Source of the DNA: Oligoflexia bacterium
GTDB taxonomy: Bacteria > Bdellovibrionota > UBA1018
Assembly (NCBI GenBank): GCA_903895855.1
Contig: CAITVN010000072.1
Coordinates: forward strand, 67,932-131,931
Reading direction: 5' to 3'
DNA length: 64,000 bases
Both the position numbers and the translations under genes were made by a program. Under the pieces are notes generated by a model. It saw only the letters and a list, made by a program, of their open reading frames with translations, did not search any database and was not told the origin of the DNA. Positions 21,089-57,045 of this stretch are shown one piece after another (the first letter of the stretch is position 1; each line of letters opens with the position of its first letter).

Positions 21089-21093
21089 CTCAT

Positions 21094-24038: not shown

Positions 24039-24040
24039 TT

Positions 24041-33372: not shown

Positions 33373-34965
33373 TTGCAGAAATTCACCAAACCTATGGCAA
33401 ACCAAACTATCGAAAAGCCCTCACGACGGTCATTATTCATTTCACTTAGCCTGAGACTACCCCTCGCCCTACTGAGCACAGGCCAAATAGACCTAGCCTA
33501 TTCAGCCGAGCAGGCCCCAGTTCAAGCCACTAGTCAGCGATTACCCGCATTGCGAATTTCAATCGGCGAACAGCGGCTTCTGCATTTTGAAAAAATCCAT
33601 CAGTACACGATCGGCTCTGAGTCCGTAATTCATGCTAAGCGCCTCGAAAAAAGCGATCACCTCATGATCAAGGGCATTTCAGTCGGAAAAACCGACCTCT
33701 GGGTTTGGACTGAACCCAACCTTGTGAAAATGCGGTCGGTCATCGTTAATCCTTTGAGATACCCCTCACAAAATTCGAGAAGAAGCTCAAATCAGACAGG
33801 GCAAGACGAATCATTAGATTCAGTCAACTTGCCCGAAAGCCTACTCGCCGAAACCGAAAGCTTGCAAGAAATCGAGGTTACCTATGGCAAATCGACCCTT
33901 TTACTCACCGGAGAGCTGAATACCGAAGAAGAAGCAAAAAAAATCGCCACTCTCAAGCTAGCTTTTCCATCAATGATCGACGACCAAACAACCGTATCGT
34001 CAAAACTTGCTAGGATCGGAAAAAATAAACTCGAAAACTGGCTTGCCGACTCAAAAAATCCTTATCAACTGAAAGTGACGGTCACAGATCAGAGGCTCAA
34101 AATTGAGGGCGATGTGCTCAAATCTGACTCAAAGAAGACCTTAGAAAAAACCGTTCACCAACTGGTTCCGTGGTGTGACATCGACTTTGACTCACCGCCA
34201 GACAGAGCCCCAACCGTGCACTTGAAGGCCACGATACTAGAACTCGAAACCCACGCATTCAAAAAAATCGGCAGCCAACTTTCACAGACCTCCCCCATTC
34301 AGGCGCAGATTTTCTCTCAAGTCTCACTTTCACCAGCCGAATTTGATCTCTGGCTAAGCACCATCGAGGCCGACGGTCAGGCTAAGGTACTTTCAAAACC
34401 CGACCTTGTACTCAGAGTACCTGGCGAAGCTGAACTCTTTTCAGGCGGCGAGCTTCCGATACTCAAAAAAAACCACGTGAGCTCAGACATCGAATGGAAG
34501 CCCTTCGGCCTTCAACTCAAAGTCAAAATGCAGTCTGAATCGGGCTCTTACCTTCGCCTCGACATTCAAGGCGAAGTTTCAAGCCTAGCGCCTGAGATTT
34601 CTTCAACTGAAAACACACCGGGTATTAAAACCAACCGATTTCACTCTCAAGTTGACGCCAAATACGGAGTTCCGCTCCTGCTTTCAGGCCTTCTGCAAAA
34701 CCGTTCACACTCGCTGAACCAGGGAATACCTTGGTTTCGAAAAATTCCGTTAATAGGGGCGTTTTTCGGCACTGACGAAGAAAAATCTGAAAATACTGAG
34801 ATTGTGGCCATTCTCTTAATCGAAAAAAACTTGCCCCACGTGAGGCCCGATTCGGTGCGTGTTCGATCTGATCTCACCGAAGCAGCTGCCCGAGAATCAG
34901 AGACTGCAGCACCCACTCTATCCCCCGGGCGATTGTGGATTGAACGAAAGGCGATCATTCAATGA
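33373..34965 (+). CDS. secretin (CpaC/RcpA-like, Tad/T2SS family)
   Basis: TTG start and a signal peptide. The C-terminal secretin domain is GVPLLLSGLLQNRS...IPWFRKIPLIGAFFG...TEIVAILL. Confidence 0.75.
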   Translation: MQKFTKPMANQTIEKPSRRSLFISLSLRLPLALLSTGQIDLAYSAEQAPVQATSQRLPALRISIGEQRLLHFEKIHQYTIGSESVIHAKRLEKSDHLMIKGISVGKTDLWVWTEPNLVKMRSVIVNPLRYPSQNSRRSSNQTGQDESLDSVNLPESLLAETESLQEIEVTYGKSTLLLTGELNTEEEAKKIATLKLAFPSMIDDQTTVSSKLARIGKNKLENWLADSKNPYQLKVTVTDQRLKIEGDVLKSDSKKTLEKTVHQLVPWCDIDFDSPPDRAPTVHLKATILELETHAFKKIGSQLSQTSPIQAQIFSQVSLSPAEFDLWLSTIEADGQAKVLSKPDLVLRVPGEAELFSGGELPILKKNHVSSDIEWKPFGLQLKVKMQSESGSYLRLDIQGEVSSLAPEISSTENTPGIKTNRFHSQVDAKYGVPLLLSGLLQNRSHSLNQGIPWFRKIPLIGAFFGTDEEKSENTEIVAILLIEKNLPHVRPDSVRVRSDLTEAAARESETAAPTLSPGRLWIERKAIIQ

Positions 34966-35927
34966 CCCCTTCGAACACCACAACTGAAGGCCTGCAACAG
35001 CTCATCGAAACAGGAATTTTCAACCACTTGCCAATCTGTGATGTGTGCATCACCCCTGTGGTCAACGGCACTACCGCGCAAGTCTTTGTCGACACTGGCG
35101 AAGGAATGGTAGAACTGCCCAGCCAAATTTCTCACAGTCAGGTTCAACAATGGGCACTGGGTCTCATGAACAAATCGGGCAGAAGCTGGGATGCCAAGTA
35201 TCCGTTCATGGATTTTCGCCACATCGATCAATGCGGAGCCTGGCGGGTGCACATCGCCTTTCAACCTGCCTCGGTACATGGGCCCAGCATTTCACTTCGC
35301 CGTCTTTCAGTAGGCTCTTCAAGCGCCCGAAACTGGCAACCGACATCACATTTTGAACTCTTGAAAAAAGCTGTCGATAACAAAGAAAGTATTCTGATCG
35401 CTGGGGCCACCGGATCTGGAAAAACAACCTTACTCAGTGATCTACTGGGTTATGCCGCGGCCAGCGAGCGCATTTTAGTTCTCGAAGACACTCCAGAAAT
35501 TTCTACCGCCCACCCCCATGTTTTGAATTTGTCGGCGCGCCCCCCTAATTCAGACGGCATGGGTGAAATCACCTTGCGACATCTCGTTCGTGAATCTCTT
35601 CGCATGAGGCCAGATCGAATCATTCTGGGCGAATGCCGAGGTGGAGAAGTTCTCGATTTGCTTCAAAGCCTCAACACTGGACACCGCGGCTCGCTTGCGA
35701 CACTTCACGCCAACAGCGCAAGAGATGCGTTGCGTCGACTTGAATTACTTTGCTACCTTCAAGCCACCAACCCGCCACCTCATTCTATCATTCGGGATCT
35801 CATTGTACACGGCGTTCAGTGGGTGGTGCACTTGCGTCGAAATAACGGTTCGAGAGTGATTTCTGAAATTCTTCGAATTGAGGGGCGCGAAGGAGATACC
35901 ATCTTGGCTAGGCCCATGTTAGACTAG
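34962..35927 (+). CDS. CpaF/TadA/VirB11-family secretion ATPase
   Basis: Walker A GATGSGKTT, Asp box VLEDTPE and His box LGECRGGE. It overlaps the secretin stop by 4 nt. Confidence 0.8.
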   Translation: MTPSNTTTEGLQQLIETGIFNHLPICDVCITPVVNGTTAQVFVDTGEGMVELPSQISHSQVQQWALGLMNKSGRSWDAKYPFMDFRHIDQCGAWRVHIAFQPASVHGPSISLRRLSVGSSSARNWQPTSHFELLKKAVDNKESILIAGATGSGKTTLLSDLLGYAAASERILVLEDTPEISTAHPHVLNLSARPPNSDGMGEITLRHLVRESLRMRPDRIILGECRGGEVLDLLQSLNTGHRGSLATLHANSARDALRRLELLCYLQATNPPPHSIIRDLIVHGVQWVVHLRRNNGSRVISEILRIEGREGDTILARPMLD

Positions 35928-35932
35928 GGCCC

Positions 35933-36382
35933 ATGTTGCATCCGAAGACTTTCTCAAAACAATTTCACTTAGTGATGTCAGTTGTCTACTTAGTTGGCGG
36001 GTTAATCTTTTTCTTTTTACCCAAAGAGCTCTTCTACTTCATTAATGTCGTGCCGACGGTTTTTCACATCGGAAACCCGGTTTCTGAATCAAGCGAATAC
36101 TTCTGGCTAGCGCTGGCGACCTCGATGATGATCATGCTCAGTTTGATTAGTTTTCTCAGCTACAAAACCAAGTCAGCTGAAACGTTAAAAGCCTTGATGA
36201 GCGTTCACGCCCTTTCGAAGATAACGTCAACGCTAGGATTTTTATTGTTAGCACTCAAAGGCCATGTGTTCGCCTATTGGTCTGGAATCATCACCGATTT
36301 TCCGCTTTTCTTGATCGTCATTTGGCTGATAACGAAGGTCGACGTAATTACCGAGACTTCGAAAGGTTCTCCTGAAGCATGA
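35933..36382 (+). CDS. small four-TM membrane protein, hypothetical
   Basis: 149 aa with four hydrophobic helices and no recognised motif. Confidence 0.45.
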   Translation: MLHPKTFSKQFHLVMSVVYLVGGLIFFFLPKELFYFINVVPTVFHIGNPVSESSEYFWLALATSMMIMLSLISFLSYKTKSAETLKALMSVHALSKITSTLGFLLLALKGHVFAYWSGIITDFPLFLIVIWLITKVDVITETSKGSPEA

Positions 36383-37392
36383 GCTCAATTTCAAATCAGC
36401 CATTCTGGAATCGACCCGACACCAACCTTTCTCGAGGTTTTCAAGAAGTTTGGTACCTCAAATTTAATATTCCCAATACGCAGTCGGCTCTTTGGCTTCG
36501 ATTCACTTTGCTCAGCTCTTCGAACCAATTCAGACAAGTCGCCGAACTTTGGGGAATTTACTTTGACCACCAAAATGGAGCGACTTCAAAACTCGCCCTC
36601 AAACAAACGTTCGCAATGAGTGCCGCATCTTTCGACCCCCCAGTTATCAAGATCGGACAGTCTACTTTATCGAATCAGGCAACTGACGGGGTGATTCAAT
36701 CTCGCGGCAAATCGATTGCGTGGAGCCTAAAAACAACCCAGCGCTCGGTAGCATCGTGCAACCTGGTACCCAAACCGCTTTCACAACTAAAACTGGTGAA
36801 AAATACGGTTGAGTCGGTCTACGAAGACCTGCTGTTTTCTGGCTGGATCGAAATCGATGGAAATCGAATTGAAATCGACAAAGCCCTCGGAATGCAAGCA
36901 CACCTGGCTGGCCCAAAGAATGGCCACAACTGGGTCTGGGCCCACTGCAATTCATTCACTGACGAAAAAAATCACCTCAAAGATTTTGTCTTCGAAGGCT
37001 TGGCAGCAAGAGCCCGACTTCCGGGTGGCTTGCCCACACCAACGATCACCAGCCTCTATTTTTGGTACCAAGGCAAACCGTACTTTTTTAGCACTCCCAC
37101 CGATTGGTTTCGCTGCCATCAGAAATTGAAACCAAACTGTTGGGAAATTCAGGCTGAACGAGGCAAGTTGCGATTTCAAGGCACCATCGAATTTGAACTG
37201 CGCGATTTTGCGGGAGTCACTTACGAAGACACCGATGGATCACTCTTGTATTGCTCAAATTCAAAACTCTCGAACGCCCGATTTTCGGTTTATGAAAATG
37301 GGCGGTTGATTGAAAATTTCGTTTCGAAGCGATCGGCCGCACTTGAAATCGTGAGCCGAGAGAAAAATCTATACACCCCACTACTCGTGTAG
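36379..37392 (+). CDS. hypothetical protein
   Basis: 337 aa soluble protein with no motif I can assign. Translationally coupled to the preceding gene. Confidence 0.5.
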   Translation: MSSISNQPFWNRPDTNLSRGFQEVWYLKFNIPNTQSALWLRFTLLSSSNQFRQVAELWGIYFDHQNGATSKLALKQTFAMSAASFDPPVIKIGQSTLSNQATDGVIQSRGKSIAWSLKTTQRSVASCNLVPKPLSQLKLVKNTVESVYEDLLFSGWIEIDGNRIEIDKALGMQAHLAGPKNGHNWVWAHCNSFTDEKNHLKDFVFEGLAARARLPGGLPTPTITSLYFWYQGKPYFFSTPTDWFRCHQKLKPNCWEIQAERGKLRFQGTIEFELRDFAGVTYEDTDGSLLYCSNSKLSNARFSVYENGRLIENFVSKRSAALEIVSREKNLYTPLLV

Positions 37393-37553
37393 CTGCATCA
37401 GTTTGCGAATCGCCGAATAGCTCGAGTGCTTTGAAAAGTGATGAACTCTGCCAAAAACCAAGGTCATCATGATCGCCCACATACCGATGACCTCAAAAAT
37501 CATTTTGGAGATTTCATGAGTCGATTTAGTCGCCTGATGAGTCGTCTTATTTT

Positions 37554-38597
37554 TCATGTCGATTCTTTCATCACCAAAGCCATTGCGACCACCAGGAGCG
37601 AGAGAACAGAGGGTAAAACAAAGAGAAACAAAGGCTTGATCGCCCGAGTGGGTAGCGTCGATAACCCCTTCTTGAGCTCTGAACTCCAATTGATTTGAAA
37701 CGCCTGAATTGAAGCCCCAATGCGATCTAGGCAGGGCCGCCCATCAAAAAGGCTCGCCCGAATCGAAATGAGCAATTGCTCACGAAAATCGCTCACCCAG
37801 AAAGGAAGTGATTTAAACTCGTCGGTTTCATAAGAATGACGCGTTTCAAATCGAAAGGGCCCCCAAAAATCAGCGAGCAAACTCGAATGTTGGGCTAGGG
37901 TTTCTAGCGTTTGATTCCAACCTCGGTCGGCGGGCTCACCCGCTTTGATTTGACTCATCAATTTCTCGGCACCTGCCATCAACCAAATCGGCCAATCTTT
38001 TTGTGAAGCATTCAAGCCGACTGAAAAAATCAGGTCGATTTCGCGACTAAGAAAATAGGCACCTAACACCGACCAACTCATCGAAAACAGAACAACGCAA
38101 AACCACAAGGCACTGTCAGCCGAAATCACATCCAGGAGCGCATAGAGCCCGGCTCCAGTGATCGGAACCAACAAGAAACAAATCCAGATCTGAGCACGAG
38201 CTGGCGCCGCTAACGCGTGAGCCTCAGCTAGAGTTTGGTGACTCAGCTCAATCAGCCCTTTGAATCGGTCAAAAACAGGAATGATCGAAGCCCCTCTTTT
38301 TCGCAGTTGATCGACACACTCAAAAAGCACCCCACCCCAGGGAGTAGGTAACGACTGAACCGCACTGCCCCAGTTCTCAGGCAGACTCAAGCCCACTTCG
38401 AGTCTCGATTTCAGATCTCTGATCACTTCTCGCACTTGCTCAAGCTTTGTTAGCGCGACGAAACTCGGGTTCTCTTTTCTAAAAATGAAGCTACGGAGAG
38501 CTGAAACCGAGAACCAGCTCTTTGCTGCCAAGATTAATAGTGCCACCGCGACTGACCAGGCAAAGTAAGATGAAGCCATAAGGTCTTTGCTATTCAA
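37554..38597 (-). CDS. polytopic membrane protein, hypothetical
   Basis: 347 aa with about four TM helices and two soluble loops. TTG start. It might be a TadB/GspF-like platform protein, but I cannot support that from motifs. Confidence 0.4.
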   Translation of the reverse strand: MNSKDLMASSYFAWSVAVALLILAAKSWFSVSALRSFIFRKENPSFVALTKLEQVREVIRDLKSRLEVGLSLPENWGSAVQSLPTPWGGVLFECVDQLRKRGASIIPVFDRFKGLIELSHQTLAEAHALAAPARAQIWICFLLVPITGAGLYALLDVISADSALWFCVVLFSMSWSVLGAYFLSREIDLIFSVGLNASQKDWPIWLMAGAEKLMSQIKAGEPADRGWNQTLETLAQHSSLLADFWGPFRFETRHSYETDEFKSLPFWVSDFREQLLISIRASLFDGRPCLDRIGASIQAFQINWSSELKKGLSTLPTRAIKPLFLFVLPSVLSLLVVAMALVMKEST

Positions 38598-38725
38598 GAG
38601 CTATTCCAGCCGGAGAGGACTCGCCTACGGTTGCACTCGGCACTTCTGTTGGCCAAAGCAACTCCAGGCTCTGAGAGAAGGGGCGGCTCCATGCCTGACC
38701 AGCCCCTCACAAATGGAGATTACAT

Positions 38726-38813
38726 GGGAACTGAAATTTTTGGAGCTCCCGCGTCGCACGATGCGACATGGCGGGCGACAACACGATGTTGGTCTCTAAA
38801 AATTTCAGTTCCC
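38726..38813. repeat. 16-bp perfect inverted repeat (GGGAACTGAAATTTTT / AAAAATTTCAGTTCCC) enclosing a 56-nt palindrome-rich core
   Basis: The arms are at 38726-38741 and 38798-38813. The core contains GGAGCTCC, GTCGCACGATGCGAC and CAACACGATGTTG palindromes, and two CACGATG heptamers. Confidence 0.8.
38774..38813 (+). repeat. copy 1 of a repeated intergenic element (GGCGACAACACGATGTTGGTCTC plus AAAAATT(T)CAG tail)
   Basis: The 23-nt core is identical to 42030-42052. The tails are similar (TAAAAATTTCAGTTCCCATTTAAT versus AAAAATTCAGAGTTCAATTTTTAAT). Confidence 0.8.
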
Positions 38814-38909
38814 ATTTAATCTCTATTTGTGGAGGAAGCCTCAGGCTGGTAGATAACCCCACGCAACCGTCGAATGACTCTCTCTACGCGCCACGCGCTC
38901 GCGAGTTCA

Positions 38910-39191
38910 TCAAATTTTTGACTGTACAGGTGGTCTGCCTGGCAAGCGAAACACCAAATCACCTAGGCTACCCAGAAGCCGATCGCACTCCTCGAGGTAT
39001 TTTTCAGGAACCTGAAGCTCCATATCGCGAAAATGGTCGGTAATCGGACCCGGTAGCGTCGAATAACTGACGATTCCATCTTGAGCTTCGAGAACCGTGT
39101 AGAAAAAGGCTGAATCCTCTTTTTTTACACGAACGAAAACCCAATAGACTCCTTTTGAAAATTCTGGGGCTGGATGCAGTTTTTCAGGCAT
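38910..39191 (-). CDS. small hypothetical protein
   Basis: 93 aa with balanced composition, divergent from the cpoB-like gene. Confidence 0.4.
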   Translation of the reverse strand: MPEKLHPAPEFSKGVYWVFVRVKKEDSAFFYTVLEAQDGIVSYSTLPGPITDHFRDMELQVPEKYLEECDRLLGSLGDLVFRLPGRPPVQSKI

Positions 39192-40164
39192 GTTCTTTCC
39201 AAGCGTGTTATTTTTTAACTATATGATGGCTTCGACAATTATCGGTAAACAAGAAAAAATTCGAGTACAAACGCTCAGCTCACTCAATCTTTTACTCTCG
39301 ACTCTGTTTTTAGTGGTCGTTTTGAGTGCCTGTGCAGGTTCTGCGAAAAAACCTGACGAAAAAGAAGCGGCCCCCGCTGCCCCCGCTGCCACTGCCGCCG
39401 CGCCAGCTGCCCAGACGCAAAATGACGAGCTGCGAGCCATGCTCCAAAATCTGAACACTCGAATCGACTCGCTCGAAACAAAACTAGGATCATTGAATGA
39501 AAAAGTAGATCAGACCAAAGGTCGGGTAGACCAGTCGGTCGCTGCACAAATGATGACGCCTGTTAACAGCCCTGCGAATTCAAAAAAAGGAATTTCTCCC
39601 GAAGTCGCAAAACGAAGCGAAGACCCTGAGTTCGGATTCATCACCGATCAAGCGGTCACTGAATTTCGTCGCGGCATGATTTTATTTGAAGGTAGTAAGT
39701 ACCCAGAAGCCGTTCTGCAGTTCACGTCGTTTCTTGAGCAATTTGCTGATCACGCCCTTGCCGGCAATGTACAGTACTACATTGGCGAATCTTATTTTCG
39801 CCAAAAAGAGTACAAACTAGCAGCTCAAGAATTTCAACGAGTCTTGACTTCATACGATCGCAGCCCCGCGATCTCAATGGCTCTGAAAGGGTTAGTACAA
39901 ACTTCAGATTCTCTCAAAAACGAAAAAGAAGCCTCACACTATCGACAAACACTGCTTTCATTGTTTCCGCAGTCACCGGCCGCCGGAGAACTCGCCAACG
40001 TAAAAATCAGTGCAACACCAGCGCCCGCGGCCGTTTCAGCGGCAGCCGCTCCCACAGCATCGGGCGGAGCCTCAGCCGCCGCCATGCCTGAAACTGCGCC
40101 GATTAAGGCTCAACCAAATGAAGCTTCACCCACGCATCCAGAAAAATCAGGAGCTCAACATTGA
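39190..40164 (+). CDS. CpoB/YbgF-like lipoprotein (coiled coil plus TPR)
   Basis: Lipobox LSAC, an Ala/Pro linker, a coiled-coil segment LQNLNTRIDSLETKLGSLNEKVDQ and C-terminal TPR repeats resembling CpoB. Confidence 0.6.
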   Translation: MFFPSVLFFNYMMASTIIGKQEKIRVQTLSSLNLLLSTLFLVVVLSACAGSAKKPDEKEAAPAAPAATAAAPAAQTQNDELRAMLQNLNTRIDSLETKLGSLNEKVDQTKGRVDQSVAAQMMTPVNSPANSKKGISPEVAKRSEDPEFGFITDQAVTEFRRGMILFEGSKYPEAVLQFTSFLEQFADHALAGNVQYYIGESYFRQKEYKLAAQEFQRVLTSYDRSPAISMALKGLVQTSDSLKNEKEASHYRQTLLSLFPQSPAAGELANVKISATPAPAAVSAAAAPTASGGASAAAMPETAPIKAQPNEASPTHPEKSGAQH

Positions 40165-42026
40165 AATCGACACCGAAAATCAAGCTGATCTTAGTCGCAG
40201 TTACCGCGGTGAATTTTTCTCAAGCAACTGCGGCTATCGCAGCCACTTCGGCAACAGTGAGTCAAGAACAAGAGGCCGCGAGGCTGGCTAAGCAACTCAA
40301 GCCCATTAACGATGCCACTTGGAGCACCGTCGCTTCAGCGAAAGCTACCGATCGGTACACCGTTACCAAAGGCGATACCCTTTACGATTTATCAAAAAAA
40401 CTTTTCAACGATTCAAAATACTGGCCGAAGCTTTGGGCGGTCAACAATGGCAATATTTTAAATCCTCACCTGCTCAAGCCAGGAATGACGATCACCTTTT
40501 CAAGCGGTACGGCGACCCAATTGCCCGAGGTCTCTGTTAATGATCCGAACGCTCTCATCACCCGTAGCGGATCAGCAACCAAGAACAGCACGGCGTCTGC
40601 TGCTACAGCGATGGCTTCGGCAGGCGAAACGAAGTCTGACGCTTCGGGATCGAGTGAGGCATCACCTTCAGTTTCAGGTGACTCAGGTGACACTCCAAAA
40701 AAGCGCTCCGAAGAATGGAAAACTCTGCCCGTTCAGTCTTGGGAATCAACCAACTTGAAACTGCCAGCAGGCGTCGACCGCGATGGGTTTGACGGCCGAA
40801 ACGCTCGCTTTAAGATTGCCCGAAAAACTGGGTTTGAAATTGAAGCGATTGCGGCGACTGATCGACTTGCTCACCTGGGGCGAATCATCGGGTCGCGCAC
40901 TGAAGCCTCGTTTCTCTCAATTGGCGATACCGTTTACATTGAAGCAGACGAAGAAATCAAAATCGGCGAGACTTATGTCATCACTAATGACCCCCAAAAA
41001 CTCAAATCTCGCAAATCTGACCGAACTGGCTACTCGTACAATATTTTAGGCCAAGTTCGAATATTGGGTGTTCGAGACAACCTTTATATTGGCACGATCA
41101 TTTCAGGCAAAGACGTCAGCTTTCGCGGAGCCGTTCTGATCAAGAATCAACTGAGAATTCCACAGATGGATGCCATCGCCGGCCCTGAATCAATTGAGGG
41201 CGTCTTGATGCTGAATAAAACCATTTCAACCTACGCGACGGCTCAGCACAAACTAGTCTTCATCGATAAAGGTTCAGACGATAAAGTGCGGCCGGGAATG
41301 GTCTTTCGGGCCTACCAGCATTACGATCCGGGAAATGACAAGAAACTCACCAACGCCGATTTCATCATCGCCGCTGACATTCAAGTGGTTCAAGTGAGTG
41401 AAATGTTCAGCTCTGGAATTGTGATTCGAACGATGATGCCGATAACAGAAAATACGAGTGTCGTGCTACTCACCGATGTCGCTGACCTGAAGTCTAACAA
41501 GGGTTTCAGAGATCGTAGCCCAGAAGATCGACGAAAAGATCAGGAGCTCGACGACCTCGACAAGCTAGACGGTGGCGCCGCTCTGAAAAAAGACGAACAA
41601 AAAGAATTGAAACAGCTTGAACAGTGGAAGCAAAACCCGGGAGAAGCCCCCGCAGCCCCTGGAGTACCCGCCGGTGAAACCAAAGGCAGTGAAACTAAAG
41701 TTGACGACACGAAAGGCACTCAGAAGCCCGAGCCAAAATCTGACTCAAACTCAGACGCTGCACTCGACTCTCTGGCTCCGCCTTCGGGAGATAGCCCGAG
41801 CCCCGCTGCGACTCCCCCCGCTGCGGCCACACCGCCAGAGACGGCGCCGCCATCGGGCGCAGGAACTGAGTCGCTTGCACCGCCGCCTTCGGCACCTGCT
41901 TCTAGTGAAGCCGTACCCCCAGCGCCGGCAGCGCCCGCAACTGAGACGGCGCCACCAGCACCAGCAACTCCAACGCCGGGAACTCCGCCCCCAGGGGCAG
42001 AAGACTTGGCTCCGCCATCGAATTAG
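40161..42026 (+). CDS. LysM-domain protein with Pro/Ala-rich repetitive C-terminus
   Basis: Signal peptide, LysM (YTVTKGDTLYDLSKKLF...WPKLWAVNN) and a C-terminal PAPA-rich tail with the SLAPPS motif three times. Confidence 0.7.
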   Translation: MKSTPKIKLILVAVTAVNFSQATAAIAATSATVSQEQEAARLAKQLKPINDATWSTVASAKATDRYTVTKGDTLYDLSKKLFNDSKYWPKLWAVNNGNILNPHLLKPGMTITFSSGTATQLPEVSVNDPNALITRSGSATKNSTASAATAMASAGETKSDASGSSEASPSVSGDSGDTPKKRSEEWKTLPVQSWESTNLKLPAGVDRDGFDGRNARFKIARKTGFEIEAIAATDRLAHLGRIIGSRTEASFLSIGDTVYIEADEEIKIGETYVITNDPQKLKSRKSDRTGYSYNILGQVRILGVRDNLYIGTIISGKDVSFRGAVLIKNQLRIPQMDAIAGPESIEGVLMLNKTISTYATAQHKLVFIDKGSDDKVRPGMVFRAYQHYDPGNDKKLTNADFIIAADIQVVQVSEMFSSGIVIRTMMPITENTSVVLLTDVADLKSNKGFRDRSPEDRRKDQELDDLDKLDGGAALKKDEQKELKQLEQWKQNPGEAPAAPGVPAGETKGSETKVDDTKGTQKPEPKSDSNSDAALDSLAPPSGDSPSPAATPPAAATPPETAPPSGAGTESLAPPPSAPASSEAVPPAPAAPATETAPPAPATPTPGTPPPGAEDLAPPSN

Positions 42027-42029
42027 GTT

Positions 42030-42078
42030 GGCGACAACACGATGTTGGTCTCAAAAATTCAGAGTTCAATTTTTAATG
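42030..42078 (+). repeat. copy 2 of the repeated intergenic element, 3 nt after the LysM gene stop
   Basis: Same orientation as copy 1. It lies between the convergent LysM and rdgB genes. Confidence 0.8.
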
Positions 42079-42176
42079 TAGTCTGGAAGACGCGTCACGC
42101 TAGCCGGAAACCTACTCCCAAGTTTCTCACCGAAAGCTGATCAGTTGACCAAAGGTGATAGGCCTATTTTGAAAGG

Positions 42177-42860
42177 TCAAGGCTTCGAAAGGATGATGCC
42201 CTTAGGGCCCAACTGAGCCATCAGACCTTGAATGGCCTTGGCTCGGTGGGACATCGAATTTTTTTCTGTTGCAGTCATTTCTGCCAGCGTTTTCGAATGA
42301 CCTTCGGGAATAAAAACACCGTCGTACCCAAATCCCATTGAACCTCTCGGCTCACTTGAAATCGTGCCTTCAAGCACGCCCTGAGCATGAATCAAAATAC
42401 CTTCCATACAAAGGCTGACGACACACACGAACCGAGCTGTTCTAGGAGCACCCGGCGATTTTTTCATCTCGCTTAACAAAAGTTCAATATTCGCTCGGTT
42501 TTGCTCTTCTCTTGAGACAGCATAAGGGCCAACCTTGGCAAATCGAAAGCTATGAACCCCCGGTTTTCCGTTCAAACTGTCAACTTCAAGTCCGGTATCG
42601 TCAGCAAGCGACGGAAAATGAGTCGCATGATTAATCAATCTGGCCTTAGCCATCGAATTTTCGAGGTAGGTTTGGTGATTCTCAACCTGGCCAATTTTGT
42701 CTGAATTTCTCACCAAATCAGCAACTTTCACCAAGGTTACATTGGGAAATGCCGAGAAAATGGCTTTCATTTCCTCAAATTTATCAGAATTATTGGACGC
42801 AAAGACAACTTGTTTTACCAATCTCACTCGAATTAACCCCTTTTTGTGTTCGTAATCCAA
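42177..42860 (-). CDS. rdgB: non-canonical purine NTP pyrophosphatase (RdgB/Ham1)
   Basis: VVFASNNSDKFEEMK N-terminal motif and the Ham1 fold. Confidence 0.8.
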   Translation of the reverse strand: MDYEHKKGLIRVRLVKQVVFASNNSDKFEEMKAIFSAFPNVTLVKVADLVRNSDKIGQVENHQTYLENSMAKARLINHATHFPSLADDTGLEVDSLNGKPGVHSFRFAKVGPYAVSREEQNRANIELLLSEMKKSPGAPRTARFVCVVSLCMEGILIHAQGVLEGTISSEPRGSMGFGYDGVFIPEGHSKTLAEMTATEKNSMSHRAKAIQGLMAQLGPKGIILSKP

Positions 42861-43934: not shown

Positions 43935-46362
43935 CCGCTACCCCCCTCAGATAATGAACTCACGAAAAATCGAGGTTGATCAATTGCCTGACCTACCGCT
44001 AAATAATGCTATGGCCAAAAAAGCACTAGTAGTCGTCGAGTCACCTTCGAAGGCTAAGACCATTCAAAAATACTTAGGGCGAGACTACATTGTCAAAGCC
44101 AGCGTCGGCCACATTAAAGACCTGCCGAAGAGCAAATTGGGCGTCGACCCTGCAAAAGGTTTCAAACCCGAGTACCAAGTGATTCAGGGCAAAGCCAAAA
44201 TCATTGAAGAGCTAAAGAAGGCGGCAGCCAAAGTTCCAGAAATTTTTCTAGCCCCCGATCCTGACCGAGAAGGAGAAGCGATCGCCTGGCACATTCACGA
44301 AGAACTCAAGGGCAAAGGAAAAAAAATTCATCGCGTCTTGATCAATGCCATCACAAAGGTGGCCGTCAAAGAAGCACTCGATCACCCGCAAAAGTTAGAC
44401 ACTAAGAAATTCAATGCTCAACAAGCCAGACGCATTCTCGATCGATTAGTCGGTTATAAGATTAGCCCCCTACTCTGGGATAAAGTGCGCCGTGGAATTT
44501 CAGCAGGGCGAGTGCAGTCAGTGGCATTGCGTTTAGTCGTTGAGCGCGAAGTTGAAGTCAAAGCGTTTGTTCCTGAAGAATACTGGCAACTCGGTGCCGA
44601 CTTTGAAAAACAGAAAATCGAATTCACCACCCGACTTTTCAAAATTGCCGGAAAAGACCCTGAACTCAACACCCAAGCTGACGTGAAACCGCTAACTGAT
44701 GGGTTGCGATCGGCTGAGTTCAAAATTAAGGGCATCGAGCGCAAAGAGCGCTCACGTAAGCCACAACCACCGTTCATCACGAGCCGCATGCAGCAAGAAG
44801 CTGCCAGAAAATTAGGGTTTAGCGCTAAGAAAACGATGGCAATGGCCCAGCGGCTTTACGAAGGTATTGATCTTGGCGACATCGGCACGACCGGTTTGAT
44901 CACCTACATGAGAACCGATTCGACCAGAGTCGAGCCCGGAGCAATCAAAGAAGTGAGAGAATTTATTGCCACTGAGTACGGAAAAGATTTCGTGCCAGCT
45001 GAACCCAACCTCTATAAAACAAAAAAATCGGCGCAAGACGCCCACGAGGCGATTCGACCTACGTCATTAGAACTGATTCCGAGCCGAGTGATGCCGTTTC
45101 TCGAGAAAGACGAATTTCGCCTCTATCAGCTCATCTGGAATCGCTTCATTGCTTCACAAATGACCCCGGCCGTTTTAGATCAAACAGCGGTTGATGTCAT
45201 TGCCTTTGACAGCCAAAAGCGTGAAATCTGTTTTCGAGCCACGGGTTCGGTAGTCAAATTTGCGGGATTTACGGCAGTCTACTCTGAAGGCCACGACGAA
45301 AATACCGCAAAAAAAGGGCAAACGAGCGCAGAAGATGATGACGAAGATGCCCGGGCGTTGAAGCTTCCGCCACTCAAAGCCGGCGACACCGTCAACTGGG
45401 TTAGCTTCGCGCCCACTCAACACTTTACTCAACCACCTCCGCGCTTTACCGACGCCTCACTCATTCGAGAGCTTGAAGAACGTGGTATCGGTAGACCGTC
45501 GACCTACGCGACCATTTTGAGCAACCTTCAAGACCGCGAGTACGTCGAGAAACGTGAAAATAAGTACTACCCCAGTGAACTAGGCCAAGTCGTCACCGAA
45601 TTATTGGTCAAATCATTTCCTGATATTCTCAACTCTGAGTTTACAGCCGAAATGGAAAACAAATTAGACCAAATCGAAGAAGGCGACGCCAACTGGAAAG
45701 AAATTTTATCAGACTTCTGGAAGCCGTTTGAGAAGACTTTAGAAAAAGCTAAAGTTCAGATGAAAAACATCAAACAGCAGGAAGTTCCTACCAAAGTACC
45801 GTGCGAAAAATGTGGCAAGCACTACAATATTCGCTGGGGAAAAATGGGTTCATTTTTATCGTGTTCGCAATACCCTGAGTGCAAGAGCACCCAGGATTTC
45901 AAAAAAGATGAACAAGGCGAAATTGTCATTGTTCCAAAACAGTATAGCGATAAAAAATGCGAAAAATGCGGCAACTTGATGTTGGTAAAATCTGGCAAAT
46001 TTGGAAAATTTCTCGCCTGTAGCGACTATCCAGACTGCAAGTCAACTGCTGCGATCGGTACGGGCATACCTTGCCCTTCTTGCAAGGTCGGCGAAATCGT
46101 CGAACGCCAGTCTCGCTTTCGTCGCATCTTTTACTCATGTGGCAAGTGGCCAGCGTGTAATTACGCCATGTGGGACAAACCGGTCAGTCGGCCTTGCCCT
46201 AAGTGCCAATGGCCGATTCTGACTGAAAAAGTGACAAAAAAATTGGGCTTGATTGAAAAATGCCCACAAAAAGAGTGCGGCTATCAAGAGGTGATCGATC
46301 CGTTATTTGGCAAAGGTGAGCCGAAACCTGAGGGGGCAGCAGACGGTACGACTACCGCCTAA
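43927..46362 (+). CDS. topA: DNA topoisomerase I
   Basis: 811 aa with Toprim ALVVVESPSKAKTI, the catalytic domain and four C-terminal Cys4 zinc ribbons. Confidence 0.95.
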   Translation: MGSRYPPQIMNSRKIEVDQLPDLPLNNAMAKKALVVVESPSKAKTIQKYLGRDYIVKASVGHIKDLPKSKLGVDPAKGFKPEYQVIQGKAKIIEELKKAAAKVPEIFLAPDPDREGEAIAWHIHEELKGKGKKIHRVLINAITKVAVKEALDHPQKLDTKKFNAQQARRILDRLVGYKISPLLWDKVRRGISAGRVQSVALRLVVEREVEVKAFVPEEYWQLGADFEKQKIEFTTRLFKIAGKDPELNTQADVKPLTDGLRSAEFKIKGIERKERSRKPQPPFITSRMQQEAARKLGFSAKKTMAMAQRLYEGIDLGDIGTTGLITYMRTDSTRVEPGAIKEVREFIATEYGKDFVPAEPNLYKTKKSAQDAHEAIRPTSLELIPSRVMPFLEKDEFRLYQLIWNRFIASQMTPAVLDQTAVDVIAFDSQKREICFRATGSVVKFAGFTAVYSEGHDENTAKKGQTSAEDDDEDARALKLPPLKAGDTVNWVSFAPTQHFTQPPPRFTDASLIRELEERGIGRPSTYATILSNLQDREYVEKRENKYYPSELGQVVTELLVKSFPDILNSEFTAEMENKLDQIEEGDANWKEILSDFWKPFEKTLEKAKVQMKNIKQQEVPTKVPCEKCGKHYNIRWGKMGSFLSCSQYPECKSTQDFKKDEQGEIVIVPKQYSDKKCEKCGNLMLVKSGKFGKFLACSDYPDCKSTAAIGTGIPCPSCKVGEIVERQSRFRRIFYSCGKWPACNYAMWDKPVSRPCPKCQWPILTEKVTKKLGLIEKCPQKECGYQEVIDPLFGKGEPKPEGAADGTTTA

Positions 46363-46365
46363 CTC

Positions 46366-47697
46366 ATGGACATTTTGTTTGTTCACTCAAACCCTGAAAC
46401 CTGTCACGTCTTTTCTTTTGCGATCGAGGGCTCTTTCAGTGCGAGCGTCACTTGCGCAAACGATGCACACGAAGCTTTTGACTACCTAGTCGAAGACCAT
46501 AAAATTGATCTGATCATCTGCGAAAACTCAGCAGCGAATTTGAAACTTTTCAAGTTCTTACTCTCGGTCGATAGCCCTTTATCTTGCATTTTAATCAAGA
46601 GCCCAACGCCAAACACTCTGGCCTTTCCAGACCTAAAAATTTTAGGTGAAGTTTCGGCCGACCATATTGTTGATCAGATTCGCCCGATGTTAGATGCATT
46701 TCGAGAAACCCTCGCACAGTCGCCCGGCGAGGCTTCAGACTACGTTCGAATTAAAACAGAACTTTTGCTCAAAGTAGCCCCCCTTCAAGCTGACATTTTT
46801 ATTCAGCTCTCTCGCATTAAATTCGTACGCTTATTTCTCAAGGGCGATGTTTTTGATGAGGCAGACCTAAAACGAATACTAAAAGACAAGCAAGTCGAAT
46901 ACCTCTATGTCAAAATCGATAATGCGGCAGACTTCATCGCCCACTTTGGAGAGACGTTAACCAAGCTCTTGGCCGATAAAGGACTCAAAGAAAGTTCAAT
47001 ACCTACTCTGGCCACTTCGATTCACGAAGCGTGCATGGAGATCGGCAGTCAGCTCGGATTCACCCCTGAAGTGCAAAAACTAGTGAAACAAAACGTTCAA
47101 ACCGTCATTCAAGGCGCAACCGTCGCTCCGTCATTGAAGACGCTTTTGGCGCGCATGAGTACTGACAAGAAAAATTACATTCCGGCCCATAGCGTGATGG
47201 TGGCTCACATCGCTTGCTCGATCGCAATCAAGATGGGGTGGGAGTCTGACGCTACCTACGAAAAACTCACCTATGCCGGATTTTTACATGATGTCATGTT
47301 AAAAAACCCCGACATCGCCATCATCGACACTCCAGATGAGCTGAAACTGATAAAAAATAAGTTCACCCCTGAAGAAGTGCGAACGTTCTTGAGCCACGTA
47401 CAAGAATCGACAAACTATGTGTCGCAGTTTTCAGAACTGCCGCCCGATATTGAGACCATCATTTTTCAACACCATGAACGCCCTGATGGAACCGGATTTC
47501 CGCGCAAGCTCAGCGCCACCACCATCTCACCAATTTCAGCCGTTTTCATCGTCGCCCACGATATCGTGCAGACCTACTTCAAGCAAACGGGTACGATTGA
47601 TGACGTGATCGCGAACTACAAAATGAATTTCAAGGCCGGAAACTTTAAACGCGTCGTCGAAGTGCTTCTCGAGCTCAAGGCTGAGTGGGCAGAGTAG
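46366..47697 (+). CDS. HD-GYP-type phosphohydrolase with degenerate N-terminal receiver-like domain
   Basis: HD motif (GFLHDV) and HHERPDGTGFP, a GYP-to-GFP variant. The N-terminal roughly 120 aa are receiver-like but lack the canonical acidic pocket. Confidence 0.7.
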   Translation: MDILFVHSNPETCHVFSFAIEGSFSASVTCANDAHEAFDYLVEDHKIDLIICENSAANLKLFKFLLSVDSPLSCILIKSPTPNTLAFPDLKILGEVSADHIVDQIRPMLDAFRETLAQSPGEASDYVRIKTELLLKVAPLQADIFIQLSRIKFVRLFLKGDVFDEADLKRILKDKQVEYLYVKIDNAADFIAHFGETLTKLLADKGLKESSIPTLATSIHEACMEIGSQLGFTPEVQKLVKQNVQTVIQGATVAPSLKTLLARMSTDKKNYIPAHSVMVAHIACSIAIKMGWESDATYEKLTYAGFLHDVMLKNPDIAIIDTPDELKLIKNKFTPEEVRTFLSHVQESTNYVSQFSELPPDIETIIFQHHERPDGTGFPRKLSATTISPISAVFIVAHDIVQTYFKQTGTIDDVIANYKMNFKAGNFKRVVEVLLELKAEWAE

Positions 47698-47710
47698 AGC
47701 CGAATAGCCC

Positions 47711-49027
47711 TTACTTAGTAGTGCCCACTTCACTTCGCTTTGCAAAAGCCACACAAAACGCATCGGTGGCATGTGCGGCACAGTAATTGGTGTTGCACAG
47801 CACGGGCTCAAGCCACCCGCCCGTAACACAAGCTTGCGGCACTTGAAAGGCCGGAGGAGCGCTTGCGTGCGCATCAGTGGTACCATTAGTCACCGCGACG
47901 CTCATCGCCGGCATCATCGGATGCAAACCTTGATCACCATAAAAATCTGCTCCATAGCCGGGTCCAAGATCTAAAGTGCTCGAGTAAAAGGTCACACCGC
48001 TAGGAGCTGTGCCTTGTTCGCCAAACTGCATCGTGCCGGCAATATCGATCGTAATGTCGACATTGAAAAATTCGGTAATCTTCTCAGGAATCGTGAAAGA
48101 AGCCGGCAAAACTGCATTCACACCTCCTGCGGTTGAATGAGTGCCCACAATGATCGGTGTTCCATTGGTGTCATCGTAAGTCTCACTGGTGCCCCAAAAC
48201 GTATCGTCAGCAAAAAGGTCAATTGTGCTTTGGGTTCCACTACACGAGCTGTGGCCGCCAACCAGAGTATTCACACAAGTAGCCCCTGGATGATCATTAT
48301 CATCGACCGATAAGAAAAATGTTTTGTAGCCAGCAGTGTTCTCAACTTGCCGTCTCAACCAAAACCACTTGCCTGAATCAGGCACCATTTCAACCACAAA
48401 GTCTCGCTTCCAGTATTTGCCGATCGTATTAAAGTAAAGTCTGAAGTTTCGAGTGGTCTGCGCATTCAACACCGTGGTGTCAGTGAAGTCGGTCTCCCAA
48501 GAAGTATTAGGAACATGAAAGGCCGTCGGCAGTTTCATTTCTAAGTACAAAAACTGCATCTTGTAGCCACTATAGGTTCCGGCTGTGAAGGTGGTGCTCG
48601 AAAAGAGTTCACGAGCTGCACCCACCTGCGAAAAATCAAGAATCAACGGCCTCGATTCAGTGTAGGTCGGATTGGCCTCATCGGGGTTGATCACGTTAAC
48701 CTGAGTGCCATCTGACTTTAACAACCAAAAATTTACCAAAGCAATTTTATAACTCGATGGTGTCACCAGGCTTTCGCCTGATCGATTCAATTCGAAAGGC
48801 AAATCAAGCCCCAAAATAGACTCCAAGCGACTTGCATGCCCCGAAGGAGCCGTCTGAGCAATCGTATCTAGAACAGCAGTGAACTTGACACCGAGCGCTT
48901 CAGCCGGAACTACAGTGCTCGAAGCGGTGGTTCCGCAACCCGTCAGACCATTTACCAAACTAACCGAGAACGAAGCAATCAATAATGAGTCAAAAAATCT
49001 AGATCGAATTTTCATACGAGTCTCCAA
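47711..49027 (-). CDS. hypothetical lipoprotein (secreted)
   Basis: 438 aa with TTG start and lipobox LTGC. Thr/Ser/Gly-rich with no recognised domain. Confidence 0.5.
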   Translation of the reverse strand: METRMKIRSRFFDSLLIASFSVSLVNGLTGCGTTASSTVVPAEALGVKFTAVLDTIAQTAPSGHASRLESILGLDLPFELNRSGESLVTPSSYKIALVNFWLLKSDGTQVNVINPDEANPTYTESRPLILDFSQVGAARELFSSTTFTAGTYSGYKMQFLYLEMKLPTAFHVPNTSWETDFTDTTVLNAQTTRNFRLYFNTIGKYWKRDFVVEMVPDSGKWFWLRRQVENTAGYKTFFLSVDDNDHPGATCVNTLVGGHSSCSGTQSTIDLFADDTFWGTSETYDDTNGTPIIVGTHSTAGGVNAVLPASFTIPEKITEFFNVDITIDIAGTMQFGEQGTAPSGVTFYSSTLDLGPGYGADFYGDQGLHPMMPAMSVAVTNGTTDAHASAPPAFQVPQACVTGGWLEPVLCNTNYCAAHATDAFCVAFAKRSEVGTTK

Positions 49028-49202
49028 TTGAGTAAATTAATAATTGTTTAATTAAAGTTTAAGACGTCTCACGAAAATAGAACAGACTTTTCCGATAATC
49101 CAGCGCTCGACTTCAAGGCTACCCCGCCCGCGTAATACCCAGTTTAGACGGGTTTTTTTTTATAACAAGAATGGTGGCTTCTAGTGAGCTAAAGAGAGAT
49201 GA

Positions 49203-51155
49203 ATGAAGAACCCAATTGCGACCCGTTGTTTACTCAATGCACTGCCTATTCTAGCTCTCACGCTAGTTACTTCGCGTTTCACCTGGGCCAAAGCCGCATT
49301 GAAAGTCGACGATGAGGTCAAAAAAAATTACCAAGTCACGGTCTCATCAGATTTTCGAGTGACCATTCAGCGAGACAAAACCTTGACTCAAACAGGGGCA
49401 GAATCTATCACCCTGAAATTTAATTCTGCCTCTGAACTCGAGCACGCACTCAAAACTTACGACGCCCGCGAGCAACAACAAGAACTCGTCACGGCCACTG
49501 CACTCACCCACGCCATCACTTATGTTGCCAAAAATTCTACTGTGGCAGTCAACCCGAACCCTTCGCCAAACCCATCGAAAGAGTCTCAGTTCATTGACAA
49601 AAGAACCGGCGTGCCTCTGTCAACTCTTCAAGCAGCTGAACAGTTTGCGGCAGAAGCTCCAAAAAATCGCCATTTTTTGAGGGCATTTTCTGAAATATCA
49701 TTACTCATTGGTTTGGGCTGGGTCGGCTACAATTACCCTCTAGCCGAATTGAGCCTCGTCGACCACGATTTTAAAGATTCATTTGCTGGGCAGAAAGAAA
49801 AATACGGAAATCTCAAAGGCATGCGATTCGATAACAACCCGTTCATCATCAACCAGGGCCACGCCTTTGCCGGACTACTCTACTACTGGTCTGCACGCAC
49901 TAACGGATTTTCTACTTTCGAATCACTACTCTTTTCGTTTGCCGGTTCAGCAATGTGGGAAACTCTCGTCGAACGCCAAGAAGTCTTCGGAATCGGCGAC
50001 ATGATCACGACCCCGATGGGCGGCATGGCGATTGGCGAAACTTTCTATCAGTTAGGACAATTCTTCGACTCGGCTTCGCCGACCCTTGCTCACCGAATCT
50101 TAGGAGCCATCTTTGGCGGGCCTGAACACTTTCACCGTTGGCTCGACGATCGCGCACCGAACTCATCGAAGCATTACGACGCGCACGGGTTCAACTCACA
50201 AGTCTGGCACAAGTTAGGTTTAGATTTTGGCGTCGCCATCACAAAAGGCTTTTCAGGCCCGAACAATCAATTTAACCCGTTTGCTGCCCACCTAAAAGCC
50301 TCGTCCGAAATCATCAACGCCCCAAAATACGCAAAAGAAGGGCAGTTTTCTGGCATTCTTTCGAACGGTGAATTCACTAAGGCAGTGCTCTCGACTAATC
50401 TTGGCGAAGCCGGGTTGCAAGATTTTTGGTTCTTTGTCAAAACAGCCCTTGTTGGATACTATCACCACAATGCCACGCTCGACGAACAAGATCGCCTAAG
50501 TGGCTACTCTTACTTTGTTGGCCTATCGAGCGCTTTTGATCTGTCGATGCAGCAAAGCCCGCAGGGCCTAGATCAGATCGGTGCAGTTCACGTCGTCGGC
50601 TCTACTTTAGACACCACTTTCTATCATAAAGGAGTAAAAATTCGTGCCGTACTTGATGTCTACGGCGACTTCGCGCAGGTGCACTCGTATGCCGTCGACA
50701 AACTCTTTAACAAACTGGGTTGGACTGACATTCTAAAAGATGCCCGGGCCAAAGACGACCCGACTAACTATGATGAAGCGACTGATCACGGCACCGTTCT
50801 CGGCACAAAGTCGGTGTTAGAATACGATAAGACTTACATCGCTTACGGAATCACCGCTGAACTTCCGGTCGAAGTCGAATACTGCGGATTTTCAGCTGGA
50901 GCCAAAATCAAGGCTCAATCGTATCACTCAATTAACGGTCGCGATCGCTTTCAAGAGAAAATCAAACCTGGCCAAGATTTTAGCCTAAGCGATTCAAAAC
51001 TCATCGCCGGTGCGTGGATATCGTTTCCGTTGCCGATTGAATCGTCTGAGTTCAAATTCGAATATGAACACATCTGGCGCGACGGTACGGCAAAAGATGA
51101 AACCGTTGACGACGAAAGGTCTCAGTTTAAGGGCACGTTCAACTTGAGGTTCTAA
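49203..51155 (+). CDS. hypothetical outer-membrane/secreted protein
   Basis: 650 aa with a signal peptide and a C-terminal ...FNLRF, a beta-barrel-like terminal Phe. No recognised motif. Confidence 0.5.
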   Translation: MKNPIATRCLLNALPILALTLVTSRFTWAKAALKVDDEVKKNYQVTVSSDFRVTIQRDKTLTQTGAESITLKFNSASELEHALKTYDAREQQQELVTATALTHAITYVAKNSTVAVNPNPSPNPSKESQFIDKRTGVPLSTLQAAEQFAAEAPKNRHFLRAFSEISLLIGLGWVGYNYPLAELSLVDHDFKDSFAGQKEKYGNLKGMRFDNNPFIINQGHAFAGLLYYWSARTNGFSTFESLLFSFAGSAMWETLVERQEVFGIGDMITTPMGGMAIGETFYQLGQFFDSASPTLAHRILGAIFGGPEHFHRWLDDRAPNSSKHYDAHGFNSQVWHKLGLDFGVAITKGFSGPNNQFNPFAAHLKASSEIINAPKYAKEGQFSGILSNGEFTKAVLSTNLGEAGLQDFWFFVKTALVGYYHHNATLDEQDRLSGYSYFVGLSSAFDLSMQQSPQGLDQIGAVHVVGSTLDTTFYHKGVKIRAVLDVYGDFAQVHSYAVDKLFNKLGWTDILKDARAKDDPTNYDEATDHGTVLGTKSVLEYDKTYIAYGITAELPVEVEYCGFSAGAKIKAQSYHSINGRDRFQEKIKPGQDFSLSDSKLIAGAWISFPLPIESSEFKFEYEHIWRDGTAKDETVDDERSQFKGTFNLRF

Positions 51156-51177
51156 TCACCAGCGGTTTTTACCCTAA

Positions 51178-54821: not shown

Positions 54822-54879
54822 ATTCTGAACTCAAGCTGACCTATTTTGCATTCAACCTTAATTTTTTCCTCAAGAACTT

Positions 54880-55401: not shown

Positions 55402-55403
55402 CC

Positions 55404-56237: not shown

Positions 56238-56259
56238 AGGTGAACTGTCTGTCTTTGTT

Positions 56260-56913: not shown

Positions 56914-56961
56914 GAAGACCTATCGGCAAATAGTTCTGTAACCTTTTTACCGACTGTCATT

Positions 56962-57045
56962 TTTTCGAATTATTTCAATTTTTTCGACCGCCAGAATTTT
57001 TTCGAATTATTTTTAAAATTATTTTCGAATTATTTTCGAATTATT
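56962..57045. repeat. AT-rich tandem array of TTTTCGAATTAT(T) units with about 11-bp period
   Basis: Copies start at 56962, 56981 (TTTTCGACC variant), 56999, 57011 (TTTTAAAATTAT variant), 57022 and 57033. The last four are head-to-tail at 11-12 bp spacing. Each copy contains the palindrome TTCGAA. Confidence 0.8.

Follow-up and report, generated by a model that had tools for sequence, protein, structure and literature searches.

The repeat pair and the palindrome around its first copy

We examined a 64-kb stretch of DNA from an Oligoflexia bacterium of the Bdellovibrionota (positions 67,932 to 131,931 of contig CAITVN010000072.1, the whole of which we call the window; 47% G+C), in which two same-orientation copies of a short repeat bracket three genes: a small gene on the minus strand with a weak match to DUF4911, a lipoprotein with TPR repeats, and a LysM protein. 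To the left lie genes for a secretin, a T2SSE ATPase, and a T2SSF-like membrane protein, and to the right a Ham1/RdgB-type pyrophosphatase, DprA, and TopA. The repeats belong to a dispersed family that occupies at least three intergenic loci.

The 23-mer GGCGACAACACGATGTTGGTCTC is found at exactly two sites in the window, 38774-38796 and 42030-42052, both on the plus strand, without mismatch and 3.26 kb apart. With up to three mismatches allowed, 100 dinucleotide shuffles gave no match, and none is expected by chance. In both copies the 23-mer is trailed by an A-rich tail of the form A5TT(T)CAG...TTTAAT, with TTTAAT at 38815-38820 and 42072-42077. Gapped similarity between the two copies runs further downstream, to about 38859 and 42113, with a score reached by two out of 500 shuffles. 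Taken alone, the segment past CAG gives P ~ 0.02, and the outer 39 nucleotides (nt) of the arm described below give P ~ 0.003 (24 out of 37 positions identical); similarity on the 5′ side of the 23-mer is not significant (102 out of 500 shuffles). Copy 2 begins 3 nt past the stop codon of the LysM gene (TAG, 42024-42026). The exact 23/23 repeat, the A-rich tail with TTTAAT, and the position of copy 2 directly after the LysM stop had all been reported in a preliminary description of this DNA, and all are borne out. That description had also allowed for an error of assembly. The repeats recur in independent same-species assemblies from other samples (L001, L002, L003, L026, and L030); they are therefore real, and an assembly artefact is ruled out.

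What had been overlooked is that the 23-mer of copy 1 and its tail are the apex and the right arm of a near-perfect hairpin of ~181 nt. The parts of the elements in the window are as follows.

38680-38860, no strand assigned: copy 1, a complete long-hairpin (palindromic) element, from folding and an inverted-repeat search
38693-38745, no strand assigned: left arm of copy 1, 53 nt, 81% complementary to 38794-38846
38743-38800, plus strand: invariant 58-nt apex GAGCTCCCGCGTCGCACGATGCGACATGGCGGGCGACAACACGATGTTGGTCTCTAAA, 100% identical to positions 3705-3762 of contig L031 and present also in the hybrid contigs L036 and L037
38753-38767, plus strand: apex hairpin P1, GTCGCA-cga-TGCGAC, from reading of the sequence; present in every predicted fold
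38774-38796, plus strand: 23-mer of copy 1, an exact match, equal to P2 with a few flanking bases
38777-38794, plus strand: apex hairpin P2, GACAACA-cga-TGTTGGTC, with one bulged G, from reading of the sequence and folding; core of the 23-mer
38794-38846, no strand assigned: right arm of copy 1, its outer part akin to the arm of copy 2 and unrelated to that of copy 3
42030-42113, plus strand: copy 2, a 5′-truncated half element made of the 23-mer with P2 (42030-42052) and a degenerate right arm, without P1 or a left arm

Copy 1, whose two arms stand 48 nt apart, is the strongest local inverted repeat in the window, and there is no other long one. The minimum free energy of 38680-38860 is −98.6 kcal/mol on the plus strand (z = −11.3) and −94.6 kcal/mol on the minus strand (z = −10.8). 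G-U pairs are evenly spread between the strands (four vs. three), so neither RNA strand is singled out; this balance suits a palindrome maintained at the level of DNA. A single-nucleotide difference in the left arm (38723, C in the window and A in L001) affects the pairing, and the L001 allele restores the arm pair.

The apex is not itself palindromic: A 5-bp CCCGC/GCGGG stem closes around P1, and P2 comes next. Both small hairpins hold the 7-mer CACGATG and have an identical loop and identical closing pairs, on distinct self-complementary stems. Elsewhere in the window CACGATG occurs at chance frequency, and no further hairpin carrying it was found there. The A-rich tail that follows the 23-mer in copy 1 is the beginning of the right arm.

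Copy 2 shows no long hairpin on folding (z = −1.1 on the plus strand and +0.3 on the minus strand), and a search of the 3′ end of the LysM gene for a degenerate left arm or P1 gave no significant match. Since no copies but 1 and 2 have related outer arms, copy 2 is a sister of copy 1 that has lost the left arm and P1.

A third copy and hybrid elements

Copy 3 lies at an unlinked locus of the same species, beside the peptidase M48 gene htpX (contigs L031, L032, and L035). There the stop codon of htpX is followed by a 15-nt spacer, a complete hairpin (L031 3657-3806), and the stop codon of a convergent gene of 442 amino acids (aa). Its arms are 51 nt long and 94% complementary, and its predicted fold is even more stable than that of copy 1 (−103.5 kcal/mol, z = −16.7). 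The apex is that of copy 1 over all 58 nt.

The arms present a very different picture. With copies 1 and 3 aligned without gaps, 19 out of 73 pairs have changed on both sides with pairing retained, and 98.6% of cells are paired; in a control with slid partners, we see two to six double changes and 37%-46% paired. All three copies are homologous in the inner ~24 nt of their arms (17 out of 22-23 positions identical, with P ~ 0.01-0.03 in comparisons with copy 1 and P ~ 0.075 for copies 2 and 3). The outer arms show no relation between copies 1 and 3 (P ~ 0.77 and 0.35). Arm length is nonetheless conserved. A complete element thus consists of an invariant, nonpalindromic 58-nt apex holding two direct hairpins, and two mutually complementary, copy-specific arms of 51-53 nt.

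Among the options offered in the preliminary description, a family of dispersed palindromic repeats is the one supported: The 181-nt hairpin of copy 1 and the element at the unlinked htpX locus share the same 58-nt apex. The three loci, two with complete elements (z of −11 and −17) and one with a half element, are all intergenic, and each copy lies 3-64 nt past a stop codon: after the DUF4911 gene, between the LysM and Ham1 genes, and between htpX and the 442-aa gene.

The exact DUF4911 protein, when looked up, led to a contig in which the DUF4911 gene adjoins htpX (L029, identical with L036). The switch of neighbors falls inside the hairpin. This hybrid element, found in L029/L036 and again in L037, joins a left arm from copy 3, by way of the apex, to a right arm from copy 1; beyond it come the genes for DUF4911 and the TPR protein. 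L029/L036 comes from sample ERZ18647568, and the gene map of ERZ1426667 shows the same order; L037 comes from a separate sample, ERZ27313426. The fold of the hybrid is weak (−56 kcal/mol, z = −2.7), as expected of a recombinant between two self-complementary parents, which shows that the complementary forms are the parental ones.

Repeats of this kind may mislead an assembler, and for the L029 scaffold a mis-join is possible. L037 is named as a k141 contig of MEGAHIT, a name given to contigs assembled from 141-mers; since 141-mers span the 58-nt shared apex, a repeat-induced mis-join is unlikely there. Several other contigs end within the apex (L002, at 38771, L033, and L034), consistent with an assembly graph that branches there. 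Because the copy 3 left arm, apex, and copy 1 right arm occur in one element in natural strains, the apex is a crossover point between copies.

Where strains occur together, the differences between them are clustered. L037 and L036 differ only in two short mosaic tracts, with 52 differences in htpX (L037 539-680) and eight in the DUF4911 gene (1559-1604), around 878 identical nt that include the element. L001 and the window have 11 differences within 175 nt (38088-38262). These clusters look like short recombination tracts.

Gene neighborhood and the origin of the bracketed unit

The genes around copies 1 and 2 are as follows.

33.4-37.4 kb: genes for a secretin and a T2SSE ATPase, along with two unknown genes, one of which has a weak Pfam match (tocopherol-cyclase-like)
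37554-38597, minus strand: T2SSF-like membrane protein, the left neighbor; gene callers place the start at 38579; no Pfam match of its own
38910-39191, minus strand: DUF4911 orthologue with a weak Pfam match, the small divergent open reading frame of the preliminary description
39190-40164, plus strand: lipoprotein with a coiled coil and TPR repeats (Pfam matches to TPR), CpoB/YbgF-like in architecture, overlapping the start of the LysM gene by 4 nt
40161-42026, plus strand: TsaP-like LysM protein (Pfam LysM)
42177-42860, minus strand: Ham1/RdgB-type NTP pyrophosphatase (Pfam Ham1p_like, E = 5e-54), right neighbor of copy 2 and convergent with the LysM gene
downstream of Ham1: DprA and TopA

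By tblastn (30% identity, E = 5e-35) the T2SSF-like gene is orthologous to genes of 342-348 aa in the relatives, of which one matches T2SSF weakly, and the DUF4911 protein is 46%-48% identical to its counterparts in three relatives (L017, L018, and L025) and 31% to that in L023 (tblastn). Among solved structures, the best matches of the LysM protein are Myxococcus xanthus TsaP (3jc8, E = 3e-15) and a chain of a Pseudomonas aeruginosa LysM domain-containing protein (6ve2_O). The TPR gene is translationally coupled to this TsaP-like gene, inside the secretin/ATPase cluster. It had been described as an orphan CpoB/YbgF-like gene. It scores 68.7 bits against a cut-off of 90.1 for TIGR02795 and 32 against 383 for NF008068, and we rejected membership of the CpoB/YbgF family. 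Its neighbors are the TsaP-like gene and the secretin/T2SSE cluster rather than tol-pal, and it is a conserved partner of the TsaP-like gene.

The run of secretin, T2SSE ATPase, T2SSF-like protein, TPR lipoprotein, and TsaP-like LysM protein at 33394-42026 forms a conserved neighborhood, and the TPR gene may be part of a pilus or secretin system. The divergent start codons of the DUF4911 and TPR genes are at most ~31 nt apart (39191 and 39223; 26-113 nt in relatives), so one promoter or both must be located within the opposite gene.

The DUF4911(−)/TPR(+)/LysM(+) trio is kept in five distant Bdellovibrionota, where the LysM proteins are 45%-50% identical to the one in the window. On the left of the trio, T2SSE and the T2SSF-like gene are found in three of the five; on the right, DprA is found in four, with TopA immediately after it in two. 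A sixth locus (L024) retains T2SSE and LysM only. Since the trio is syntenic in these five relatives, gene order shows the flanked 3.2-kb unit to be ancestral at this locus. A comparison of synteny had been proposed in the preliminary description, to see whether relatives have the unit and whether an empty site keeps a single copy; the relatives hold the unit and are without the hairpin element, of which we found no equivalent at either of their junctions.

Gene content varies among the relatives exactly at the two junctions that copies 1 and 2 occupy. In four of them, pmbA/tldD stands between the DUF4911 and T2SSF-like genes, overlapping the end of the DUF4911 gene (corresponding to 38598-38909 in the window). 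No remnant of pmbA was found at the site of copy 1 or anywhere else in the window, and L017 is likewise without pmbA/tldD. The slot between LysM and DprA, filled here by Ham1, holds different genes in each relative.

There is no tRNA or tmRNA gene in the window. In a survey that was not exhaustive, we found no integrase or transposase domain among the genes at and between the repeats or among the called genes of 1-13.5, 13.7-29.4, and 30-64 kb. GC skew and composition show neither an origin or terminus switch nor an island signal; only Pro/Ala-rich coding tails deviate.

Away from the repeats, the minus strand of 13752-27142 carries genes for a Hyp maturation set (HypE-like, 16296-17390; HypD, 17348-18448; HypF, 18752-21088; HypB, 21094-21825), adjoined by the large subunit of a NiFe hydrogenase (22563-24038) and NuoG/NuoF-like diaphorase subunits (24592-27142). 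The cluster resembles a NAD-linked hydrogenase of the Hox type, here in a genome of the Bdellovibrionota. From ~53000 to 64000 (matching L021 and L022) there is a contiguous cluster for shikimate and aromatic amino-acid biosynthesis, comprising DAHP synthase, chorismate mutase, prephenate dehydrogenase, an aminotransferase, chorismate synthase, DHQase, DHQ synthase, and shikimate dehydrogenase/kinase; just past the end of the window come EPSP synthase and a multihaem cytochrome. Short AT-rich tandem repeats with TTTTCGAATTATTTT-like units are found at 56999-57055.

What the elements may be

We think that the copies are probably a lineage-specific family of dispersed intergenic palindromic repeats that sit at gene 3′ ends and act as a substrate of recombination. 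Such elements would survive mainly as DNA palindromes, selfish or neutral, at 3′ intergenic sites that tolerate them. The complementarity of their arms would be kept by templated correction of the quasipalindrome, by selection for a stable transcript hairpin, or by both, and either the constraint of a binding factor or gene conversion among the copies may hold the apex identical. Their main consequence would be homologous recombination between copies, which reshuffles gene neighborhoods; recombination of this kind fits the position of copies 1 and 2 at the two synteny breakpoints of the locus.

Several observations weigh against this reading. The documented copies number only three; we sought a fourth in ~73 kb around the window and in the 7.6-kb htpX locus and found none. 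The exact 20-mer GCGACAACACGATGTTGGTC gave chance matches only in GTDB representative genomes, JGI metagenomes, and IMG/VR, all within coding regions of unrelated GC-rich organisms, and translations of the element in all frames, searched so as to catch spurious open reading frames over other copies, matched no protein. No transposase, RAYT, recombinase, or reverse transcriptase (RT) was found near any copy. The termini of the elements are their most variable part and the center is conserved, the opposite of what miniature inverted-repeat transposable elements (MITEs) show, and direct reading alone of the borders of copy 1 (GAGAGAA/GGGG ... CCCC/ACGCAAC) and of copy 3 revealed no target-site duplication. 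Finally, 58 perfectly conserved nt beside arms that differ at ~45% of positions argue for a real functional constraint on the apex, about which a purely selfish or neutral model is silent.

With chance matches only for the 20-mer and no equivalent in relatives, the family is lineage-specific as far as can be seen. A blastn search against plasmids and phages gave no match. At 17205-17266 in the window, inside the HypE-like gene, a 25-nt inverted repeat is followed by a 12-nt exact match to P1 on the opposite strand (GTCGCACGATGC, 17255-17266); we judge this match a coincidence.

Rather unlikely, though the best of the alternatives, is a functional RNA module. The copies would then be transcribed hairpins of 3′ untranslated regions (UTRs) or of the gaps between cistrons that protect 3′ ends, work in the manner of terminators, or serve in processing, with a protein bound to a three-way apex and arms free to change if they stay paired. 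The placement of all three copies 3-64 nt past stop codons agrees with such a role, as do the constant arm length, the 19 compensated pairs, the invariance of the apex, and the use in P1 and P2 of the same loop and closing pairs on different self-complementary stems. By direct reading, U-rich runs trail copies 1 and 3 on the strand antisense to the apex. Canonical terminators, hairpins with a U-tract, are not enriched here, so other 3′ structures may matter. Against it, G-U pairs show no asymmetry between strands, copy 2 and the natural hybrid persist without the long stem, and the relatives have no equivalent at the same sites. There is also no Rfam match: With Rfam 15 at gathering thresholds nothing in the window is reported, and E-value mode gives only generic miRNA-hairpin models, at 13-31 bits compared with thresholds of 79-100. 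Moreover, compensation itself does not require selection. Intrastrand template switching is a known mutational mechanism by which quasipalindromes are corrected, and it can account for palindrome arms that change together without selection on RNA. It is a mutational mechanism rather than a family of elements, and it leaves the invariant, asymmetric apex unexplained.

Counts of sites with a hairpin and U-tract are near those of shuffled sequence (19 vs. 24.7 expected in 44001-64000, and seven vs. 5.6 in 38300-42400), and this organism may use canonical intrinsic terminators little.

The constancy of the apex invites a more specific suggestion, to which we give only a small chance: The two CACGATG hairpins and the 5-bp GC stem would be the recognition and crossover site of a dedicated enzyme or an RNA-binding factor, and the arms would need only to pair. 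Somewhat less likely still is site-specific recombination or mobilization, with the asymmetric apex as the substrate of a dedicated recombinase or an HUH/Y1-type enzyme, encoded elsewhere, that moves the element or exchanges its flanks. Flank exchange in natural strains falls exactly within the apex, the apex is invariant where the arms have diverged, and the copies stand at synteny breakpoints; an imperfect hairpin with a bulged base, as in P2, is a feature of HUH substrates. Yet neither a recombinase nor a transposase was found in the 64 kb of the window and the 7.6 kb at htpX, and the hybrids seen are of one type only. Within an identical apex no crossover point can be mapped, and 58 bp of identity suffice for occasional RecA-dependent recombination.

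The preliminary description had also proposed a shared terminator or small RNA (sRNA) module. That the two sites have a canonical intrinsic terminator in common, or carry duplicates of a small sRNA gene, is very improbable. The start of copy 2 only 3 nt past the LysM stop speaks for such an account. The stem of P2, however, has only five to seven pairs and is followed by UCUAAAAAUUU on the plus strand and GCC(C/A)... on the minus strand, with no U-tract on either, and a terminator scan flagged neither copy; a canonical intrinsic terminator is rejected on these grounds. No plus-strand gene ends upstream of copy 1, no promoter-like site was found at either copy (sigma-70 and sigma-54 readings were rejected by direct reading of the sequence), and, as noted, no RNA family matches. 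That the repeats are att-like scars, left when an insertion or duplication introduced the TPR and LysM genes, as the same-orientation repeats 3.26 kb apart around these genes and the mutual closeness of copies 1 and 2 might suggest, is the least credible option of all and is refuted: The bracketed trio and both outer neighborhoods are syntenic in distant relatives, a genomic island with att repeats finds neither an integrase nor a tRNA target here, no mobility gene came up in our survey, composition shows no anomaly beyond the Pro/Ala-rich coding tails, and the unlinked copy 3 shows that the repeat is not specific to the 3.2-kb unit.

Palindromic repeats interspersed between genes are a well-known kind of feature, of which ERIC, REP/BIME, and MITEs are examples; the present family is without a sequence relative, and its layout is unusual. 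ERIC or IRU sequences are imperfect palindromes of ~127 bp in transcribed intergenic regions of enterobacteria. Like them, the elements described here are long imperfect palindromes (120-180 nt for the two kinds together), strictly intergenic, in 3′ UTRs or between cistrons, with a well-conserved center, truncated copies, and no encoded protein. The two are unrelated in sequence and belong to different host phyla, and whereas ERIC copies follow one full-length consensus, the parts common to copies here are the 58-nt apex and ~24 nt of the inner arm only.

REP, BIME, and REPIN elements, which are mobilized by RAYT transposases, are likewise scattered through extragenic DNA and have a short imperfect hairpin as their core; they too are found at the 3′ ends of genes and serve as substrates of recombination. 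In both groups, complete "doublet" forms give long hairpins and decayed "singlets" occur too. In a REPIN, however, the stem is made of two inverted conserved REP units, and here the conserved P1 and P2 are direct and apical, on which ground we rejected membership. REPINs have a cognate RAYT (Y1/HUH) gene and number tens to hundreds per genome; here such a gene was found neither in the 64 kb nor in ~17 kb of linked or related loci, with three copies known.

MITEs, for example the Correia or NEMIS elements of Neisseria, have conserved terminal inverted repeats, which are the binding sites of a transposase, and they create target-site duplications. They resemble the present family as noncoding, intergenic sequences of 100-200 nt with long inverted repeats that are cotranscribed with their neighbors and linked to rearrangements. 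With the outer arms of copies 1 and 3 unrelated and no target-site duplication, a MITE in the strict sense is rejected. So is an integron attC site, which has conserved R''/L'' and L'/R' boxes (GTTRRRY) at the hairpin base around a variable center; the layout here is the reverse, with the center conserved and the base variable, and direct reading found no GTTRRRY at the borders. A diversity-generating retroelement, in which TR-VR similarity reaches into the 3′ coding region of a gene with an RT nearby, is rejected as well, there being no significant similarity 5′ of the 23-mer and no RT domain among the neighboring genes, and parS and dif readings were rejected by direct reading of the sequence.

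The findings settle the question first raised: No import of the envelope genes took place, and what had been called an "orphan CpoB-like" gene is the conserved partner of the TsaP-like LysM protein in a secretin cluster. They also define a repeat family that had not been described, from a phylum that has been little studied. Its unusual layout, an invariant apex with compensated, copy-specific arms, offers a natural test case for templated palindrome correction as opposed to selection for a hairpin. Natural strains provide direct evidence of exchange of flanks between copies, in recombinants caught in metagenomes. Such elements account for contig breaks and possible mis-joins in metagenome assemblies of these organisms, and they mark breakpoints of synteny. 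If the apex is indeed recognized by a dedicated factor, the family would be a new hairpin-borne module of recombination or mobility that actively reshuffles gene neighborhoods in the Bdellovibrionota, rather than a set of passive repeats.

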